Notes under the pieces: generated by a model
What the model was told of the DNA's origin: nothing
The model's database searches: none
Seen by the model: only the letters and a program-made list of their open reading frames with translations
Source of the DNA: Escherichia coli
GTDB taxonomy: Bacteria; Pseudomonadota; Gammaproteobacteria; Enterobacterales; Enterobacteriaceae
Assembly (NCBI RefSeq): GCF_017348835.2
Contig: NZ_CP071375.1
Direction: 5' to 3' (one strand)
Length of the DNA stretch: 64,000 nucleotides
Position numbers and translations under genes: made by a program
Shown: positions 4,297 to 64,000 of the stretch, piece after piece
How positions within the stretch are numbered: position 1 is the first letter of the stretch
Layout: every line of letters starts with the position of its first letter

Positions 4297-5250
4297 TCAA
4301 AATGCATTACGTATAACATCTATTACTCCGTGCAGGATGGGATCACGCAGGCTGAATTTGTTGTAGTGGATAGAGAAATCTATTTGCTCCTCATTTAAGG
4401 ACGGAAAAGGCAGTTTTTCCAGCGGCCAGCAGCGGCTAAACAGGTTATAAAAACGGCTGGGAATAATCGCTAACATGTCACTGTTGGCAACCAGTGCAGC
4501 GATTGTCAAAATGTTGTAGCTGGTGAAATTGATTTGCCGGTCCGGAAACATCTCTTGAACTCTCTGCCGCAGACCGCTGAAATTTTGCCCTTCCGGTAAC
4601 AGGAGTACATGCGCAGCGTTGTCGATAGTCTCTCTGTCATCTTCTAAAGAGAGTAGTGGATTTCCCTCGCGGCAAATTAACACCATATTGTCGGTGAACA
4701 GAACATGATGTTGCACCGTACGATTGGTGCAAAACATGTTATCGATGATGAGATCGGTTTGAAACTGACTGAGTTGGTTTTCCGCGTCGCTGATGGGCGG
4801 GTTGCGCAGTAAAAGCTGCGGATAGTGAGTTTTAATCGCCCGATAGATGACAGGAAGGACCAGGGCTCCGACCGAGGGAGTGGTCGCAATAGTTATCGTT
4901 CGTTGCTTATCATAGCTTCCTTCGATATCCAGCGCGCCAAGAATGGACTCAAGGCCCTGACTGATATACTCATGTAGATGCATCGCAAATGCGGTAGGAG
5001 TGACACCCTGGCCTTTGCGAATAAACAATGGGTCAGGGAATATAACGCGCAGTTTCTGAATAGACTGACTGATTGCCGAGGGGGTCAGATTAAGCACTTT
5101 CGCTGCATTAACGATCCCTTTATGTACATATACAGCTTCAAAAATAGTCAGAAGGTTAAGATCAATATTTCGTAAGGTTGTAAATATTTGTGGTTTACCT
5201 TCTGACGACTTTCTGCTTAAACAGGGTTCAATTTGATTATTACTATCCAC
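4297..5250 (-). CDS. ybeF: LysR-family transcriptional regulator YbeF
   Basis: 317 aa; N-terminal LysR-type HTH (DLNLLTIFEAVYVHKGIVNAAKVLNLTPSAISQSIQKLR). Confidence 0.88.
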   Translation of the reverse strand: MDSNNQIEPCLSRKSSEGKPQIFTTLRNIDLNLLTIFEAVYVHKGIVNAAKVLNLTPSAISQSIQKLRVIFPDPLFIRKGQGVTPTAFAMHLHEYISQGLESILGALDIEGSYDKQRTITIATTPSVGALVLPVIYRAIKTHYPQLLLRNPPISDAENQLSQFQTDLIIDNMFCTNRTVQHHVLFTDNMVLICREGNPLLSLEDDRETIDNAAHVLLLPEGQNFSGLRQRVQEMFPDRQINFTSYNILTIAALVANSDMLAIIPSRFYNLFSRCWPLEKLPFPSLNEEQIDFSIHYNKFSLRDPILHGVIDVIRNAF

Positions 5251-56234: not shown

Positions 56235-57875
56235 ATGGCAATCCACAATCGTGCAGGCCAACCTGCACAACAGAGTGATTTGATTAACGTCGCCCAACTG
56301 ACGGCGCAATATTATGTACTGAAACCAGAAGCAGGGAATGCGGAGCACGCGGTGAAATTCGGTACTTCCGGTCACCGTGGCAGTGCAGCGCGCCACAGCT
56401 TTAACGAGCCGCACATTCTGGCGATCGCTCAGGCAATTGCTGAAGAACGTGCGAAAAACGGCATCACTGGCCCTTGCTATGTGGGTAAAGATACTCACGC
56501 CCTGTCCGAGCCTGCGTTCATTTCCGTACTGGAAGTGCTGGCAGCGAACGGCGTTGATGTCATTGTGCAGGAAAACAATGGCTTCACTCCAACGCCTGCC
56601 GTTTCCAATGCCATCCTGGTTCACAATAAAAAAGGTGGCCCGCTGGCAGACGGTATCGTGATTACACCGTCCCATAACCCGCCGGAAGATGGTGGTATCA
56701 AGTACAATCCGCCAAATGGTGGCCCGGCTGATACCAACGTCACCAAAGTGGTGGAAGACAGGGCCAACGCACTGCTGGCCGATGGCCTGAAAGGCGTGAA
56801 GCGTATCTCCCTCGACGAAGCGATGGCATCCGGTCATGTGAAAGAGCAGGATCTGGTGCAGCCGTTTGTGGAAGGGCTGGCCGATATCGTTGATATGGCG
56901 GCGATTCAGAAAGCGGGCCTGACGCTTGGCGTTGATCCGCTGGGCGGTTCCGGTATCGAATACTGGAAGCGTATTGGCGAGTATTACAACCTCAACCTGA
57001 CTATCGTTAACGATCAGGTCGATCAAACCTTCCGCTTTATGCACCTTGATAAAGACGGCGCGATCCGTATGGACTGCTCCTCTGAGTGTGCAATGGCAGG
57101 CCTCCTGGCACTGCGTGATAAGTTCGATCTGGCGTTTGCTAACGACCCGGATTATGACCGTCACGGTATCGTCACTCCGGCAGGTTTGATGAATCCGAAC
57201 CACTACCTGGCGGTGGCGATCAATTACCTGTTCCAGCATCGTCCGCAGTGGGGCAAAGATGTTGCCGTCGGTAAAACGCTGGTTTCATCTGCGATGATCG
57301 ACCGTGTGGTCAATGACTTGGGTCGTAAACTGGTAGAAGTCCCGGTAGGTTTCAAATGGTTTGTTGATGGCCTGTTCGACGGCAGCTTCGGCTTTGGCGG
57401 CGAAGAGAGCGCAGGGGCTTCCTTCCTGCGTTTCGACGGTACGCCGTGGTCCACCGATAAAGACGGCATCATTATGTGTCTGCTGGCGGCGGAAATCACC
57501 GCTGTCACCGGTAAGAACCCGCAGGAACACTACAACGAACTGGCAAAACGCTTTGGTGCGCCGAGCTACAACCGTTTGCAGGCAGCTGCGACTTCCGCAC
57601 AAAAAGCGGCGCTGTCTAAGCTGTCTCCGGAAATGGTGAGCGCCAGCACCCTGGCAGGTGACCCGATCACCGCGCGCCTGACTGCTGCTCCGGGCAACGG
57701 TGCTTCTATTGGCGGTCTGAAAGTGATGACTGACAACGGCTGGTTCGCCGCGCGTCCGTCAGGCACGGAAGACGCATATAAGATCTACTGCGAAAGCTTC
57801 CTCGGTGAAGAACATCGTAAGCAGATTGAGAAAGAAGCGGTTGAGATTGTTAGCGAAGTTCTGAAAAACGCGTAA
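56235..57875 (+). CDS. pgm: Phosphoglucomutase
   Basis: Start at [10 protein letters not shown] (546 aa); phosphoserine loop TPSHNP. Confidence 0.95.
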
Positions 57876-57893
57876 ACACATTAAATAATAAAT

Positions 57894-57919
57894 ATCCTCC
57901 GGCATAGCCGGAGGTTTTT
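57894..57919 (+). terminator. Rho-independent terminator after pgm
   Basis: cctccgg-catag-ccggagg followed by T5. Confidence 0.7.
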
Positions 57920-58600
57920 CAAATGCGCCTATAAGGCTCTCTTACCAGCCGCGCCCTAACAGGCGCACACGATCTGACATTTGCATCCAACTTCGTTACT
58001 TACGGCCCGTAAACGGGCTGCCCGGATAGGGAATCGATAACTGCTCTACCATTTTATCCTCTTCAAGCTGGTGCTTTATGTAATCCTGTATCTTCGCCGT
58101 GTTCTTACCCACTGTATCGACGTAGTACCCTCTGCACCAGAACTCCCTGTTCCTGTATTTGAATTTCAAATCACCAAACTGCTCGTAAAGCATCAGACTG
58201 CTTTTCCCTTCCAGATATCCCATAAAGCCGGATACGCTCATTTTGGGCGGGATCTCCACAAGCATATGGATATGATCTGCACAGCATTCAGCTTCCAGAA
58301 TCCGTACACTTTTCCACTCACACAGCTTTCTCAAAATACTGCCTATTGCTCTACGCTTCTCTCTGTAGAACACCTGTCTTCGATATTTTGGCGCAAAAAC
58401 TATGTGATATTTACAGTTCCATCGGGTGTGCGCTAAGCTCTTTTCGTTCCCCATTGGGACCCCCTTTTGATTTCTTGTTTGACACTTGCAGTTGCCAGAC
58501 CGCAAGGTGTTTTAACAAATCAAAAGGGGTTTTAATAACTGGCTCAAAGCTGAAAGCTTTCCGGAACCCCCAGCCTAGCTGGGGGTTTTCTGTGCACAAG
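57900..58600 (-). mobile_element. IS200-family insertion sequence (IS200/IS605 family), boundaries approximate
   Basis: Contains an IS200-type Y1 transposase gene; the 5' side has a perfect hairpin (58566-58588) and a long-range inverted repeat (58461-58471 / 58527-58537) around the tnpA RBS; size is about 0.7 kb. Confidence 0.6.
57996..58454 (-). CDS. tnpA: IS200-type Y1 (HUH) transposase TnpA
   Basis: 152 aa from MGNEKSLAHTRWNCKYHIVFAPKYRR...; HUH motif HIHMLV and catalytic Tyr region; closely resembles Salmonella IS200 TnpA by recall. Confidence 0.85.
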   Translation of the reverse strand: MGNEKSLAHTRWNCKYHIVFAPKYRRQVFYREKRRAIGSILRKLCEWKSVRILEAECCADHIHMLVEIPPKMSVSGFMGYLEGKSSLMLYEQFGDLKFKYRNREFWCRGYYVDTVGKNTAKIQDYIKHQLEEDKMVEQLSIPYPGSPFTGRK

Positions 58601-58631
58601 AAAAAGGGCGGTCGCAAGATCGCCCTTTTTT
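58601..58631 (-). terminator. Rho-independent terminator of speF-potE
   Basis: Minus-strand hairpin gggcgatcttgcgaccgccc flanked by A6/T5, immediately after the potE stop. Confidence 0.75.
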
Positions 58632-58642
58632 ACTTTGCTTTT

Positions 58643-59962
58643 TTAACCGTGTTTATTTTTCAGTTCAAAGCGTGGTGATACCAGACCATACAGTGTCCAA
58701 CCGAGGAAGGTCACGATAGAACCGTACAGCATGGCTTCTTCCCCGGATGAGTACAGCGCATAGAAACTGTACATCGCGCCAACAAAAGCAACAAAGTTTG
58801 CAACTTTCGCTTTTGAGGGGGGCACATTAGCGACCTTTTGAATAATGACTAATGCCGCCATTGACAGAATATACGGAATGATATTGGTCACCACGGCCAG
58901 GTTAACCAGCACGTTGAACTGACTGTTTAGCGACGGGCTAATCGTCATCAGCGCCAACCCGCTCTGGATAATCACAATGGTCAACATTCCCTGCACCGGT
59001 GCATCCACTTTGGTTACACGGGAGAAAATTTTAGGGAAGTAGCCTTCATCAGATGAAGATTTAAACACCTGGGCAATGGTGAACTGCCAGCCAAGTAGCG
59101 AACCGCAGCAGGACATCACCATCAGCGCCATAATGACTTTACCCACTTCCGGCGTGAACATCTGCGCGAAGGCCAGACCAAATGGTGCCGTTGAATTTGC
59201 CAGCTCCATATTTGGCACAATCCCGGCAATCACGTTGGTGGAGACGATATAAATCACCGCCGCACCTAACGTACCGCCGAGTACCGCGATTGGCACATTA
59301 CGTTCCGGGTTTTCCACTATATCAGTATTTGCACACGCAGACTCCAGACCAAGAAAAGCCCACAGCGTCATAGCGATGGAAGAACCTACCGCACTGAAGA
59401 ACGGTGCATGATGCGGATTCCAGGAATCAACGTACAGCGTCGGGCTAAACCAGAACCAGCCAATAATGCACAGACCGACGACCGGAATAATGACCCCCCA
59501 CACGGTAATGCTACTGATTTGCCCGGTAATGCGCGCACCACCAAAGTTAGCCACGGTACAAATCCACAGCACCCCGATGGTCGCAAGACCAATCTGCACT
59601 GGCGACAAACTCGCGCCGAGCAGTTCGGTGCCGTAACCAACCGCCGAAATAGCAATCGCGACGTTAGCAATCAGCAGTGAGACGCCGTAGGTATAGTTCG
59701 CCATAAAGTTACCGGATTTACCGAAAGCATACTCGGCATAACCGCCCATACCGCCTGATTTACGGCTGAACATACCGCATTTTGCGAATGCCCATGCCAG
59801 TGCCATTGAGCCTACGGCTGTCACCAGCCAGGAGATAATTGAGATTGTCCCGACTTCGGCAAGCTTTGTCGGCAGCATGATGATACCGGAGCCCATCATG
59901 TTGACCATCGTCAGTATGGTTAACTGAACGACGCCCATTTTGTTCGATTTAGCCTGACTCAT
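58643..59962 (-). CDS. potE: Putrescine/ornithine antiporter (APC family)
   Basis: 439-aa 12-TM transporter matching PotE. Confidence 0.95.
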   Translation of the reverse strand: MSQAKSNKMGVVQLTILTMVNMMGSGIIMLPTKLAEVGTISIISWLVTAVGSMALAWAFAKCGMFSRKSGGMGGYAEYAFGKSGNFMANYTYGVSLLIANVAIAISAVGYGTELLGASLSPVQIGLATIGVLWICTVANFGGARITGQISSITVWGVIIPVVGLCIIGWFWFSPTLYVDSWNPHHAPFFSAVGSSIAMTLWAFLGLESACANTDIVENPERNVPIAVLGGTLGAAVIYIVSTNVIAGIVPNMELANSTAPFGLAFAQMFTPEVGKVIMALMVMSCCGSLLGWQFTIAQVFKSSSDEGYFPKIFSRVTKVDAPVQGMLTIVIIQSGLALMTISPSLNSQFNVLVNLAVVTNIIPYILSMAALVIIQKVANVPPSKAKVANFVAFVGAMYSFYALYSSGEEAMLYGSIVTFLGWTLYGLVSPRFELKNKHG

Positions 59963-62157
59963 AATTTTTCCCCTTTCAACAGGGTGCTTTGCGCATCACG
60001 AGGCTTGATGACATAGCACCAAACTTGCTTACGACCATCATGTTCTTCGATATAGACACCCTGCAGCTCCGGTGCAAAACCTGGCAGCAGGTTGATCCCT
60101 TCTTCCAGAGCGCTGAAGTAACGCAGAACAGCACCACCCCAGATTTCACCCGGAACAACACACAGCACACCCGGAGGATAAGGAAGCGCACCTTCGGCAG
60201 CGATACGGCCTTCTGCATCCGGCAGACGAACCAGTTCCACTTCACCGCGTAAATAGGCGTAGTTGGCTTCTTGCGGATTCATGCTGACGCGTGGGAAGTG
60301 CTCCTTACGGAACATCTCTTTTTGCAGTTGTTTCACGTTGTGGCGGGCATACAAATCATGCATTTCCTGACACAACTGACGCAGGGTATAACCGGCGTAG
60401 CGCTCTTCATGCTGTTTGTAGATGGAAGGTAGCACTTCTGCTAATGGCGCGTCGGACTCAAGCAGTTTTTCGAAGCGTACCAGCAGGGCAACAAGTTGCT
60501 GAAGTTTGGCCATATCTTCTGCCGGAGTCAGCAGGAAGAGGATGGAGTTAAGATCGCATTTTTCCGGCACTACGCCATTTTCGCGCAGGAAGTTAGCAAG
60601 AATCGTCGCGGGTACACCGAACGCTTCATATTCGCCGTTACGTGCATCAATACCTGGGGTTGTCAGCAACAGTTTGCATGGATCGACAAAGTATTGATTC
60701 TCTGCATAGCCTTCAAAAGAATGCCAGTGTTCCCCTGGTACAAACTGGAAGAAGCGCAGATCAACCGCAATTTGCGCTGTTTCATACGACTGCCAGGGTT
60801 TACCATCCACCAGTTCAGGTACGAACGGACGAATATGCTGACAGTTATCGAGGATCAGTTTGCGGGCATTAATGCCATTTACCACACAATCCATCCACAT
60901 ATTACGACCGCTGACACCTTCATGCATTTTGGCGTTGATATCCAGTGCGGCAAACAGCGGATAGAACGGGCTGGTGGAGGCGTGCATCATAAAGGCGTTG
61001 TTCATGCGTTTGTGCGGTACATAACGCTGTTGCCCTTTGATGTGGCTGTCTTTTTTATGAATTTGTGAAGTCTGAGAAAAACCAGCCTGTTGTTTATGCA
61101 CAGATTGCGTAACCAGAATACCCGGATCGTTCTCATTAAGTTCCAGTAGCAGCGGCGAACAGTCCGCCATCATCGGAATAAACTGTTCATAGCCGACCCA
61201 TGCTGAGTCAAACAGGATGTAGTCACACAGATGACCAATTTTATCCACCACCTGGCGGGCGTTATAAATCGTACCGTCGTAGGTGCCTAACTGAATCACA
61301 GCGAGGCGGAAAGGACGAGCCTCTTTTGCCCGCTGCGGTGCGACTTCCGCGATCAGCTCACGCAGGTAACTTTCTTCAAAACAGTGCGCATCAATGCCAC
61401 CGATAAAGCCATACGGGTTACGTGCCGTTTCCAGATAAACCGGTGTTGCACCAGCCTGTAGCAACGCTCCGTGGTGGTTAGATTTGTGGTTATTGCGATC
61501 AAACAGCACCAGATCACCCGGTGTTAGCAGGGCGTTTAAAACCACTTTGTTAGAAGATGAAGTGCCATTTAGAACGAAGTATGTTTTATCTGCATTAAAC
61601 ACTTTTGCCGCATGTTGCTGTGCAATGCATGGCGCGCCTTCGTGAATCAGCAGATCGCCCATTGCCACATCCGCGTTGCATAAGTCGGAACGGAACAGCG
61701 TTTCTCCGAAGTACTCCACGAACTGATTCCCTGCCGGATGACGACGGAAAAACTCACCTCCCTGATGACCCGGGCAGTCAAAAGCGCTATTGCCCTGATT
61801 GACATAATCGACCAGTGCGCGGAAGAAGGGCGGGCGCAGTTGCGTTTCATAATGGCTGGCAGCGGTTTCTAACTGACGTCCATAAAACTCTTTCCGTGAT
61901 TCGCAATGCTCGAAGACACCAGAAATACGTGGCAGATATTCTGCTGGTACACGTTCTTCATTTTCCGTTGCAATAAAAACAGGAATACCATAGCCAGTAG
62001 CGTCTATTTCATCGAGTTTTCCACGTTCAACATCACTGACTGATAAAATAATGGCGGCAACGTCAATATAATTACTTTCGTCTATATTCACGCATGCACG
62101 ATGAGTGGAAAAACAATCCGGGCAAGAACGACTAACGGCAATTTTTAATTCTGACAT
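59959..62157 (-). CDS. speF: Inducible ornithine decarboxylase
   Basis: PLP fold-III decarboxylase; start taken at MSELKIAV (732 aa). Confidence 0.93.
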   Translation of the reverse strand: MSELKIAVSRSCPDCFSTHRACVNIDESNYIDVAAIILSVSDVERGKLDEIDATGYGIPVFIATENEERVPAEYLPRISGVFEHCESRKEFYGRQLETAASHYETQLRPPFFRALVDYVNQGNSAFDCPGHQGGEFFRRHPAGNQFVEYFGETLFRSDLCNADVAMGDLLIHEGAPCIAQQHAAKVFNADKTYFVLNGTSSSNKVVLNALLTPGDLVLFDRNNHKSNHHGALLQAGATPVYLETARNPYGFIGGIDAHCFEESYLRELIAEVAPQRAKEARPFRLAVIQLGTYDGTIYNARQVVDKIGHLCDYILFDSAWVGYEQFIPMMADCSPLLLELNENDPGILVTQSVHKQQAGFSQTSQIHKKDSHIKGQQRYVPHKRMNNAFMMHASTSPFYPLFAALDINAKMHEGVSGRNMWMDCVVNGINARKLILDNCQHIRPFVPELVDGKPWQSYETAQIAVDLRFFQFVPGEHWHSFEGYAENQYFVDPCKLLLTTPGIDARNGEYEAFGVPATILANFLRENGVVPEKCDLNSILFLLTPAEDMAKLQQLVALLVRFEKLLESDAPLAEVLPSIYKQHEERYAGYTLRQLCQEMHDLYARHNVKQLQKEMFRKEHFPRVSMNPQEANYAYLRGEVELVRLPDAEGRIAAEGALPYPPGVLCVVPGEIWGGAVLRYFSALEEGINLLPGFAPELQGVYIEEHDGRKQVWCYVIKPRDAQSTLLKGEKL

Positions 62158-62309
62158 TTTGTTCATCTCTTTATTTCAGGTAATAGCAGGTCCTCAATTT
62201 CTCAAAGGAGAAATCGATCACGCCGGAAAAAAAGCAAAGCTCCACCGCTGATAAATAAATCAGTAGTTTGCTTTTTGCAGATGCAATAACCCAGACCAGC
62301 CCGGTAACT

Positions 62310-62490
62310 GGCTATACTCGTCATACTTCAAGTTGCATGTGCTGCGTCTGCGTTCGCTCACCCCAGTCACTTACTCATGTAAGCTCCTGGGGATTCACTC
62401 GCTTGTCGCCTTCCTGCAACTCGAATTATTTAGAGTATATACTCGTCATACTTCAAGTTGCATATGCTGCGACTCGAATTATGTAGAGTT
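62310..62490. repeat. ERIC (enterobacterial repetitive intergenic consensus / IRU) element with an adjacent core-deleted partial copy
   Basis: atgtaagctcctggggattcac (62377-62398) and cgctcaccccagtcacttac (62355-62374) match the ERIC core by recall; end segments 62314-62346 and 62419-62435 are repeated directly at 62439-62488. Confidence 0.6.
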
Positions 62491-62592
62491 TAAAAGGGTT
62501 AGCAGTATATGAGCACCGAGGGATACAGGTATTAACCTGTAATGCTTAAAGTCAGGGAGACCTGTACGCTGGGGTGCCCTTTAGTCAGAAGA

Positions 62593-62697
62593 CTAGCGGG
62601 CATTAAAGAAATGAAAGTCAAAACTATTACGATGGGCAAACTTCATGATATGGGTTGTCCGCCTTATATGAGGCATTAAGCGGTTATTATTTTCCAT
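62593..62697 (-). CDS. speFL: speFL leader peptide (ornithine-sensing arrest peptide), 34 codons
   Basis: Reverse-strand ATG at 62697 to TAG at 62593 translates to MENNNRLMPHIRRTTHIMKFAHRNSFDFHFFNAR; too short for the ORF track. Confidence 0.75.
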   Translation of the reverse strand: MENNNRLMPHIRRTTHIMKFAHRNSFDFHFFNAR

Positions 62698-62893
62698 TTA
62701 CCTTTACCTCTTGCTGTGTCAGTTGAAGGTAGAGTTATTCTATCCATGAAATGGCTATAATCTGTGAAGAAGATCAACAAAAAACGATCATACCCCAGAT
62801 AATAAATCATTAATTATGAATAGCGCCATATTAGACGCTGTTTTGTTATTTAAATGTTGTAATTTTGTGTTTTATATTTGCGTTAAGAAATTA

Positions 62894-62926
62894 AACCTGC
62901 CAAATAATAATATTTGGTGCAGGTTT
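62894..62926 (-). terminator. Possible terminator hairpin downstream of kdpE
   Basis: aaacctgc...gcaggttt imperfect stem in an AT-rich region. Confidence 0.35.
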
Positions 62927-62971
62927 AATAATAAATTAATCACTATTTAAGCGAATTTATTGAATAACAAT

Positions 62972-63649
62972 TCAAAGCATAAACCGATACCCAATACCGG
63001 TTTCAGTAATGAAATGGCGGGGGCGAGCGGGATCCTGTTCCAGTTTTTGTCGCAGATGTCCCATATAAATACGCAAATAATGACTGTGTTCGACCGCGTT
63101 TGGCCCCCACACCTGGTTAAGGAGTTGGCGCTGGGGGAGTACTTTTCCGGCGTTGTTGAGCAGCACTGCCAGCAGGCGAAACTCAATCGGGGTGAGGTGC
63201 ACCTCTTCCTCACCCCGGTGAATCACGCGGGCGGCTAAATCGACGGTAACATCGGAAAATTTCACTACCGGATCGGGCGCGGCAGTGGCTGAATGGCGGC
63301 GTAATGCGACGCGCAGACGGGCCTGCAATTCGCCAATGCCAAACGGCTTACTCAGATAATCATCCGCTCCGGCATCCAGCGCGGCGATTTTGTCGCTCTC
63401 TTCGCTGCGTGCGGAAAGCACTATCACCGGCACCGCGCTCCACTGGCGCAGGTCGCGGATAAACTCAATCCCATCACCATCGGGCAGGCCGAGATCGAGA
63501 ATAATCAAATCTGGCTTACGGGTTGCCGCTTCCAGCAAGCCGCGTTGCAGCGTTTCGGCCTCAAAGACGCGCATACCGTCGCCCTCCAGCGCCGTGCGCA
63601 GAAAGCGACGAATAGCCTGTTCATCTTCAACAATCAGAACGTTTGTCAC
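62972..63649 (-). CDS. kdpE: Response regulator KdpE (OmpR family)
   Basis: 225 aa; receiver domain (phospho-accepting Asp in LIILDLGLPD) and winged-helix output domain. Confidence 0.95.
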   Translation of the reverse strand: MTNVLIVEDEQAIRRFLRTALEGDGMRVFEAETLQRGLLEAATRKPDLIILDLGLPDGDGIEFIRDLRQWSAVPVIVLSARSEESDKIAALDAGADDYLSKPFGIGELQARLRVALRRHSATAAPDPVVKFSDVTVDLAARVIHRGEEEVHLTPIEFRLLAVLLNNAGKVLPQRQLLNQVWGPNAVEHSHYLRIYMGHLRQKLEQDPARPRHFITETGIGYRFML

Positions 63650-64000
63650 ATATCCTCATGAAATTCTTCAAGTTCAGGGGCAGTTTGCTGGGGAAGTGTA
63701 ACACGAAAACAGGCACCACCTTCCGGTCGGTTGAACGCGGTAATAGTGCCCCCGTGTACATCCACTATCTCCCGACAAATTGCCAGTCCAAGCCCTACCC
63801 CCGGTACTGCCGACTCTTTATTCCCGCGAGCAAACTTATCAAATATCGTCTGCTCCTGGCCTGGCGGAAGACCGGGGCCGTTATCCCAGACATCCAGTTG
63901 TAGATTTTCGCCCTCAACGTGGGCATCGATACCAATTTCGGCCTGCGCACCCGCATATTTCACCGCGTTCTCCAGCAGATTAATCAGCACCCGTTCAAAG
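63646..64000 (-). CDS. kdpD: Sensor histidine kinase KdpD, C-terminal HATPase fragment (gene continues past the window end)
   Basis: N-box and G-box motifs (LLENAVKY, DNGPGLP, GLGLAI); overlaps the kdpE start. Confidence 0.9.
   Translation of the reverse strand, partial: FERVLINLLENAVKYAGAQAEIGIDAHVEGENLQLDVWDNGPGLPPGQEQTIFDKFARGNKESAVPGVGLGLAICREIVDVHGGTITAFNRPEGGACFRVTLPQQTAPELEEFHEDM

Follow-up and report, generated by a model that had tools for sequence, protein, structure and literature searches.

The reference for the leader peptide of the speF-potE operon, which senses ornithine and turns on these polyamine genes, is SpeFL of E. coli K-12, for which cryo-EM structures of the stalled ribosome are available (PDB 6TBV and 6TC3; Herrero del Valle et al. 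2020). In this peptide, residues 1-13 form a sensor domain made of an N-terminal hairpin and the HIRRxxH loop at positions 10-16, and residues 14-34 form the effector domain (Herrero del Valle et al., bioRxiv 10.1101/604074). According to the same work, the ornithine pocket is lined by P9, R12 and R13, codons 12 and 13 are rare Arg codons, and deletion of the N-terminal hairpin (residues 1-7) abolishes arrest in vitro. In the effector domain, residues F20, F28, F30 and F31 are packed round F26, residue 32 adjoins the peptidyl-transferase centre, where N32 displaces U2585, and RF1 is blocked at the stop codon (bioRxiv 10.1101/604074).

The orf34 leader of Salmonella Typhimurium (Ben-Zvi et al. 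2019, PMC6386406) shares with the present locus a length of 34 codons, a start about 30 nt from the 5' end and the AGG-CGG codon pair. By the description given in that paper, it also has, as predicted for the present locus, a hairpin at the stop codon, a helix between the 3' part of the ORF and the speF ribosome-binding site (RBS) and a long structured 'ring' spacer; in Salmonella the hairpin is followed by Rho termination, which is presumed here. It differs in its UGA stop codon, which is UAG in the DNA analysed here. The Rho-terminated transcript of Salmonella is 157 nt long, the interaction between ORF and RBS was validated by compensatory mutations, and deletions in the 'ring' were found to alter arginine-dependent mRNA decay (Ben-Zvi et al., PMC6386406). 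The stop-codon hairpin has been described for both Salmonella and E. coli (bioRxiv 10.1101/604074; PMC6386406).

The closest mechanistic analogue of SpeFL, and no relative of it, is TnaC, the leader peptide of tnaCAB. TnaC is tryptophan-dependent, has an unrelated sequence, recognises another ligand at another tunnel site and acts on RF2 instead of RF1. The logic is the same in both cases: a small molecule makes the ribosome stall at the leader stop codon, which hides a rut site and keeps Rho from terminating transcription (bioRxiv 10.1101/604074).

The locus reported here lies near one end of a stretch of 64,000 nt of E. coli DNA, which was analysed as a whole and is referred to as the window. 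Compared with K-12 SpeFL, the window ORF has the same locus, length, UAG stop, HIRRxxH loop, effector domain, AGG-CGG pair and predicted stop-codon hairpin. The differences are the substitutions S5N and T7L, which bear out exactly the suspicion of the initial annotation that two N-terminal residues depart from the K-12 sequence, and a speFL-speF spacer of 435 nt instead of 257.

Identity of the 34-codon leader ORF

Translation of the ORF (Table 1) gives MENNNRLMPHIRRTTHIMKFAHRNSFDFHFFNAR followed by TAG, and an ATG-started frame of 34 amino acids is also given at this position by the ORF listing. In the final 7 kb of the window there are 97 overlapping ORFs of at least 20 amino acids, so that one of 34 codons means little by itself and comparison was needed. 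The ORF is located between kdpE and speF-potE, on the same strand as both speF and potE. A megablast search of 5426 complete E. coli genomes found the kdpE-speF intergenic region to be 100% identical to that of E. coli PE164, in which exactly these bases are labelled speFL, 'leader peptide SpeFL' (WP_001312672.1), by RefSeq/PGAP, within the order kdpD, kdpE, speFL, speF, potE, IS200/IS605 tnpA, pgm. In ST540 and JJ1886 the gene is annotated under this protein accession too, and the PGAP label speFL was also found in many other strains. The K-12 MG1655 counterpart is b4803 (YP_010051176.1), with the translation MENNSRTMPHIRRTTHIMKFAHRNSFDFHFFNAR.

At the protein level, an alignment spanning the whole window peptide shows 32 of 34 residues to be identical to the SpeFL chain of the stalled-ribosome structures (PDB 6TBV/6TC3, E 1.7e-18), and the peptide is matched by Pfam family PF10940, 'Leader peptide SpeFL' (E 2.2e-6, score 27.8). 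A scan of the peptide with the NCBIfam HMMs returned no family, even at E values up to 1; the SpeFL name used by PGAP evidently comes from another type of rule. Likewise, an Rfam scan of positions 57800-64000 returned no leader or riboswitch family, and the sub-threshold matches to V_AS5 and isrH in this region were accounted for by copies of the ERIC repeat described below.

All functional elements that have been published for SpeFL are kept in the window peptide, namely P9, the HIRRTTH loop, the five Phe residues, N32, the AGG-CGG pair and the UAG stop. The residues of the N-terminal hairpin (1-7) are also present and include both substitutions relative to K-12, so that ornithine sensitivity could differ in degree between the two forms. 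We consider it almost certain that the ORF is speFL, the arrest/leader peptide gene of speF-potE, in its commonest natural E. coli allele (N5, L7).

A leader ORF upstream of speF, resembling the SpeFL arrest peptide, had been proposed in the initial annotation from the sequence alone. The ORF is borne out by its translation, the ORF listing, PGAP and synteny, and its SpeFL-like nature by the structural match, by PF10940 and by the PGAP label on identical bases. The checks proposed with it come out in its favour: its alignment with annotated speFL is near-perfect, and 5020 of the 5426 complete E. coli genomes have speFL in full length (partial match in 23, none in 383). The description of the ORF as unlisted was correct for the ORF track used at that time only; elsewhere this is a standard annotated gene, as the K-12 entry illustrates. 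Its recognition by eye is a correct re-discovery of a small gene falling under ORF-length cut-offs and adds no new knowledge, PGAP annotating speFL in nearly every E. coli genome. The gene has been described before: it is routinely annotated, characterised both structurally and genetically, and has a Pfam family of its own.

Table 1. Positions of speFL, its leader elements, the ERIC repeats and the adjacent genes in the window
Feature	Position	Strand	Evidence
speFL CDS, 34 codons + UAG stop (stop 62593-62595)	62593-62697	-	translation, PGAP, PDB 6TBV, Pfam PF10940
Purine-rich putative Shine-Dalgarno region GAGGUAAAGG, immediately 5' of the speFL AUG	62701-62710	-	read from sequence
HIRRTTH (codons 10-16), HIRRxxH ornithine-recognition loop	62650-62670	-	sequence; motif per bioRxiv 10.1101/604074
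Rare Arg codons AGG and CGG (codons 12-13)	62662-62664 and 62659-62661	-	sequence, codon list
Effector domain (codons 14-34): F20, F26, F28, F30, F31, N32, identical to K-12	62596-62658	-	alignment
Predicted hairpin UGCCC-GC-UAGUC/GACUA-AA-GGGCA	62575-62602	-	folding, window and K-12 allele
Second leader hairpin UACAGGU-UAAU-ACCUGUA	62524-62541	-	folding, alignment
Predicted long-range helix, 5' strand (speFL codons 24-31)	62604-62626	-	minimum-energy fold
Predicted long-range helix, 3' strand (speF Shine-Dalgarno + AUG, 62155-62157)	62146-62173	-	minimum-energy fold
Mini-ERIC, ~50 nt, two ERIC ends without the centre	62441-62493	-	alignments
Full-length ERIC (enterobacterial repetitive intergenic consensus), 127-128 nt	62313-62440	-	repeat search, primer match
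speF, inducible ornithine decarboxylase, regulated gene	59959-62157	-	ORF listing, PGAP
potE, putrescine-ornithine antiporter, 439-aa permease, co-transcribed with speF	58643-59962	-	ORF listing, PGAP
kdpE	62972-63649	-	ORF listing

Leader RNA and the speFL-speF spacer

The whole leader was folded, beginning at the position that corresponds to the start site in Salmonella. The predicted hairpin at the end of speFL comprises the stop codon and the two sense codons before it, in the window and K-12 alleles alike, and would correspond to the RNA-polymerase pause, or stop-codon, hairpin of the published model. In the second leader hairpin, the closing pair has undergone a compensatory change, from U-A in K-12 to C-G in the window. 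The minimum-energy fold contains a helix of 10 bp (62626-62617/62155-62146) and another of 12 bp (62615-62604/62173-62162) that join speFL to the speF RBS; this long-range pairing is predicted despite the ERIC insertion. From the middle of speFL to about 100 nt past its stop codon, the C/G ratio is 1.4-2.0, a value that is compatible with a rut site and is no proof of one. A scan for consensus promoters upstream of speFL found no sigma-70-like site on the minus strand; a putative transcription start was placed by analogy with Salmonella (+32).

The greater length of the spacer relative to K-12 reflects 176 extra nucleotides, located by alignment at about 62318-62493. They belong to two repeats. 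The mini-ERIC is part of the common non-K-12 allele, being present in ST540, JJ1886 and CFT073, and is absent from K-12; the full-length repeat is absent from all four of these strains. In the latter, the sequence of primer ERIC1R was found exactly and that of ERIC2 with one mismatch. On the basis of these primer sequences, we take this repeat to be ERIC. Apart from its place inside a regulatory leader, nothing distinguishes the window copy from other ERIC/IRU repeats, which are the same imperfect palindrome of 127 nt. Copies of the full-length sequence are dispersed over unannotated intergenic DNA, the median genome having 5, and the doublet of mini-ERIC and full ERIC was found in 34 of the 5426 complete E. 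coli genomes. The two units start at a distance of about 80 nt or more past the point where Rho is expected to terminate, and each is predicted to fold as a self-contained hairpin inside the 'ring' of the leader, leaving the regulatory helices intact. The spacer is known in lengths of 257 nt in K-12, about 310 nt in the common allele and about 380 nt in Salmonella, and because of ERIC repeats it falls into at least three length classes within E. coli. A literature search on ERIC together with speF returned nothing relevant. The ERIC-expanded spacer is the only unusual feature of this locus, and a minor curiosity; a quantitative effect on regulation might conceivably result from it.

By analogy with the characterised systems, ornithine binding, ribosome arrest and an involvement of Rho are presumed for the present allele and strain. 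Transcription of the leader would begin at a promoter some 30 nt before the AUG, and RNA polymerase would pause at the hairpin that contains the speFL stop codon. At low ornithine concentrations, the ribosome would terminate at UAG and depart, and the slow AGG-CGG codons would delay the trailing ribosomes, exposing the C-rich rut site; Rho could then terminate transcription just past the hairpin, some 20 nt after the stop codon. In any mRNA resulting from read-through, pairing of speFL codons 24-31 with the speF ribosome-binding site would block the start of translation. At high ornithine concentrations, a single ornithine would be caught between the HIRRxxH loop (P9, R12, R13) and the 23S rRNA, the C-terminal domain, rich in Phe, would compact in the exit tunnel, and N32 would displace U2585, excluding RF1. 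The ribosome stalled on the stop codon and the queue behind it would mask the rut site, keep Rho out and hold the inhibitory helix open. With Rho excluded and the RBS helix open, speF-potE would be expressed. An additional arginine-dependent layer, based on pausing at the Arg codons and on RNase G, may complement the ornithine mechanism.

Allele distribution and alternative readings

The window allele (at least 99% identity) was found in 3332 of the 5426 complete E. coli genomes (61%), and a K-12-type allele (80-90% identity band, mostly 85.7%) in about 1704. Among 1.84 billion representative proteins, phmmer found 14 matches to the peptide, most of which read MENNNR[L/F/A]MPHIRRTTHIM[K/M]FAHRN... 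Residues M1, N4, R6, H10, I11, R13, H16, R23, F26 and F31 are invariant among eight full-length forms of SpeFL, with identities down to 56%. Since N5 and a hydrophobic residue 7 are the rule among the homologues, K-12 with its S5 and T7 is the outlier: the laboratory peptide is a minority allele that lies off the family consensus. Along with the spacer classes, this could matter when data from K-12 reporters are extended to other strains. Where the homologue of 56% identity is encoded there are no kdp genes nearby, and the genes that follow it directly are those for a decarboxylase of the OKR_DC family and an amino-acid permease. As the decarboxylase and permease are kept where the kdp neighbours are missing, the link to speF-potE represents the conserved context.

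Short ORFs being abundant by chance, a fortuitous frame in a leader that functions as RNA only had to be considered, as did the possibility that the real gene is an overlapping ORF of 44 codons (62676-62810, minus strand), which is also annotated by PGAP. The window and K-12 alleles of speFL differ at 15 of 105 nt (85.7% identity), 12 of which are third codon positions. When the codons are read as in speFL, 11 of those changed are synonymous and two are non-synonymous, whereas the two remaining frames give synonymous to non-synonymous ratios of 1:13 and 1:12; this excess of synonymous changes, confined to a single frame, argues that speFL is coding. A chance ORF is ruled out by these comparative data, i.e. 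by the 11:2 ratio and by the matches of the peptide to a solved structure and to a Pfam family. The 44-codon ORF was rejected as a real gene, since it is not conserved in the K-12 allele and overlaps the promoter region and start of speFL, where it would span a conserved promoter block; it is probably a spurious call, and the PGAP labels that it bears are inconsistent ('hypothetical protein' or 'TonB-dependent receptor'). Taken as a whole, this way of accounting for the ORF has next to no probability. A peptide that is truly translated might also serve mainly as a sensor of arginine supply through its two rare Arg codons, as has been proposed for Salmonella orf34, pausing of the ribosome altering the folding of the leader and its sensitivity to RNase G. 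The window keeps the AGG-CGG pair, and Ben-Zvi et al. (PMC6386406) have shown an arginine-dependent destabilisation for which both these codons and alternative structures of the leader matter. However, such an effect adds to the ornithine arrest, induction by ornithine having been reported in both PMC6386406 and bioRxiv 10.1101/604074, and two codons cannot account for the conservation of a whole peptide combined with synonymous drift. A principal role in arginine sensing is very improbable.

It is conceivable, on the other hand, that speFL is functional in the window and that N5 and L7, the ERIC-expanded spacer, or both shift the regulation quantitatively with respect to K-12, by altering the ornithine threshold, the basal read-through or the RNase G-dependent decay of the mRNA. 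Residues 5 and 7 belong to the N-terminal hairpin that arrest requires, deletions within the Salmonella 'ring' alter the arginine-dependent destabilisation of the mRNA (PMC6386406), and the ERIC doublet is rare (34/5426) and adds two stable predicted hairpins inside the ring. However, homologues from elsewhere usually have N5 and a hydrophobic residue at position 7, as do 61% of E. coli genomes, and it is K-12 that departs from the norm. The ERIC units, for their part, are predicted to fold on themselves at least about 80 nt past the Rho point with the regulatory helices intact, and the length of the spacer already varies in nature (257, about 310 and about 380 nt). Such a shift is rather unlikely, and an ordinary speFL in its commonest allele is the preferred reading. 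That the doublet, possibly with the N5/L7 allele, retunes the expression of speF-potE in its lineage is unlikely; it could do so through an altered RNase G/E-dependent decay or through the kinetics with which the RBS-sequestering helix is formed. Should this be true, a dispersed repeat would be seen to modulate, in a natural setting, an attenuator based on an arrest peptide.

Neighbouring genes and variant forms of speFL

The longest ORF for speF starts at an ATG at position 62166 (MNKMSELK...) and has 735 codons, against 732 amino acids for the form starting at 62157 (MSELK...). In K-12, 2 nt are deleted between these ATGs, so that the first of them is no longer in frame with speF; the conserved speF start is therefore 62157, in agreement with PGAP. 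Identity to K-12 is uneven along this part of the window: it amounts to 98.8% in pgm, 96.3% in potE-speF (58603-62305) and 88.8% in the segment comprising the leader, speFL, kdpE and kdpD (62491-64000). The haplotype break falls at the ERIC site, so that speFL belongs with the haplotype on the kdp side. Within the kdpE-speFL intergenic region, the upstream part could not be aligned to K-12; the two sequences align again from about 95 nt before the speFL AUG.

The 3' end of the window kdpE (62971-63115) matches the K-12 pseudogene ybfI (locus L002, 4721-4865) at 89.7% identity, as would be expected if ybfI were a remnant derived from kdpE and lying, in K-12, across speF-potE from it. The gap between potE and pgm (region 57996-58640) contains in the window a tnpA gene of the IS200/IS605 family (57996-58505, minus strand), and a strong Rfam match to STnc490 (58464-58587, 146 bits) was found at this element. 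The corresponding gap contains nothing in CFT073 and ybfP/ybfG/ybfI in K-12.

Altered forms of speFL were found in several genomes. E. coli CFT073 (locus L005, about 4995-5036) has an in-frame deletion of 63 nt that removes codons 3-23 and with them the whole HIRRxxH loop. The remnant is an ORF of 13 codons, MENSFDFHFFNAR, with the same stop codon, and speF and potE are intact; judging from the published mutational data, this deletion should abolish ornithine sensing. E. coli NDM6 (locus L006, 401-505) carries a K-12-type speFL, labelled 'hypothetical protein' only, with the substitution T14K in the HIRRxxH loop (HIRRKTH), and the speF gene downstream of it is a frameshifted pseudogene. A further form, with a replaced N-terminus (MNKLESLPPHIRRTTH...), adjoins a fragment of an IS1 transposase at three loci (L010, 226-330; L011, 131-235; L009, 4001-4105), where insertion of IS1 appears to have cut off about the first seven speFL codons together with the native promoter.
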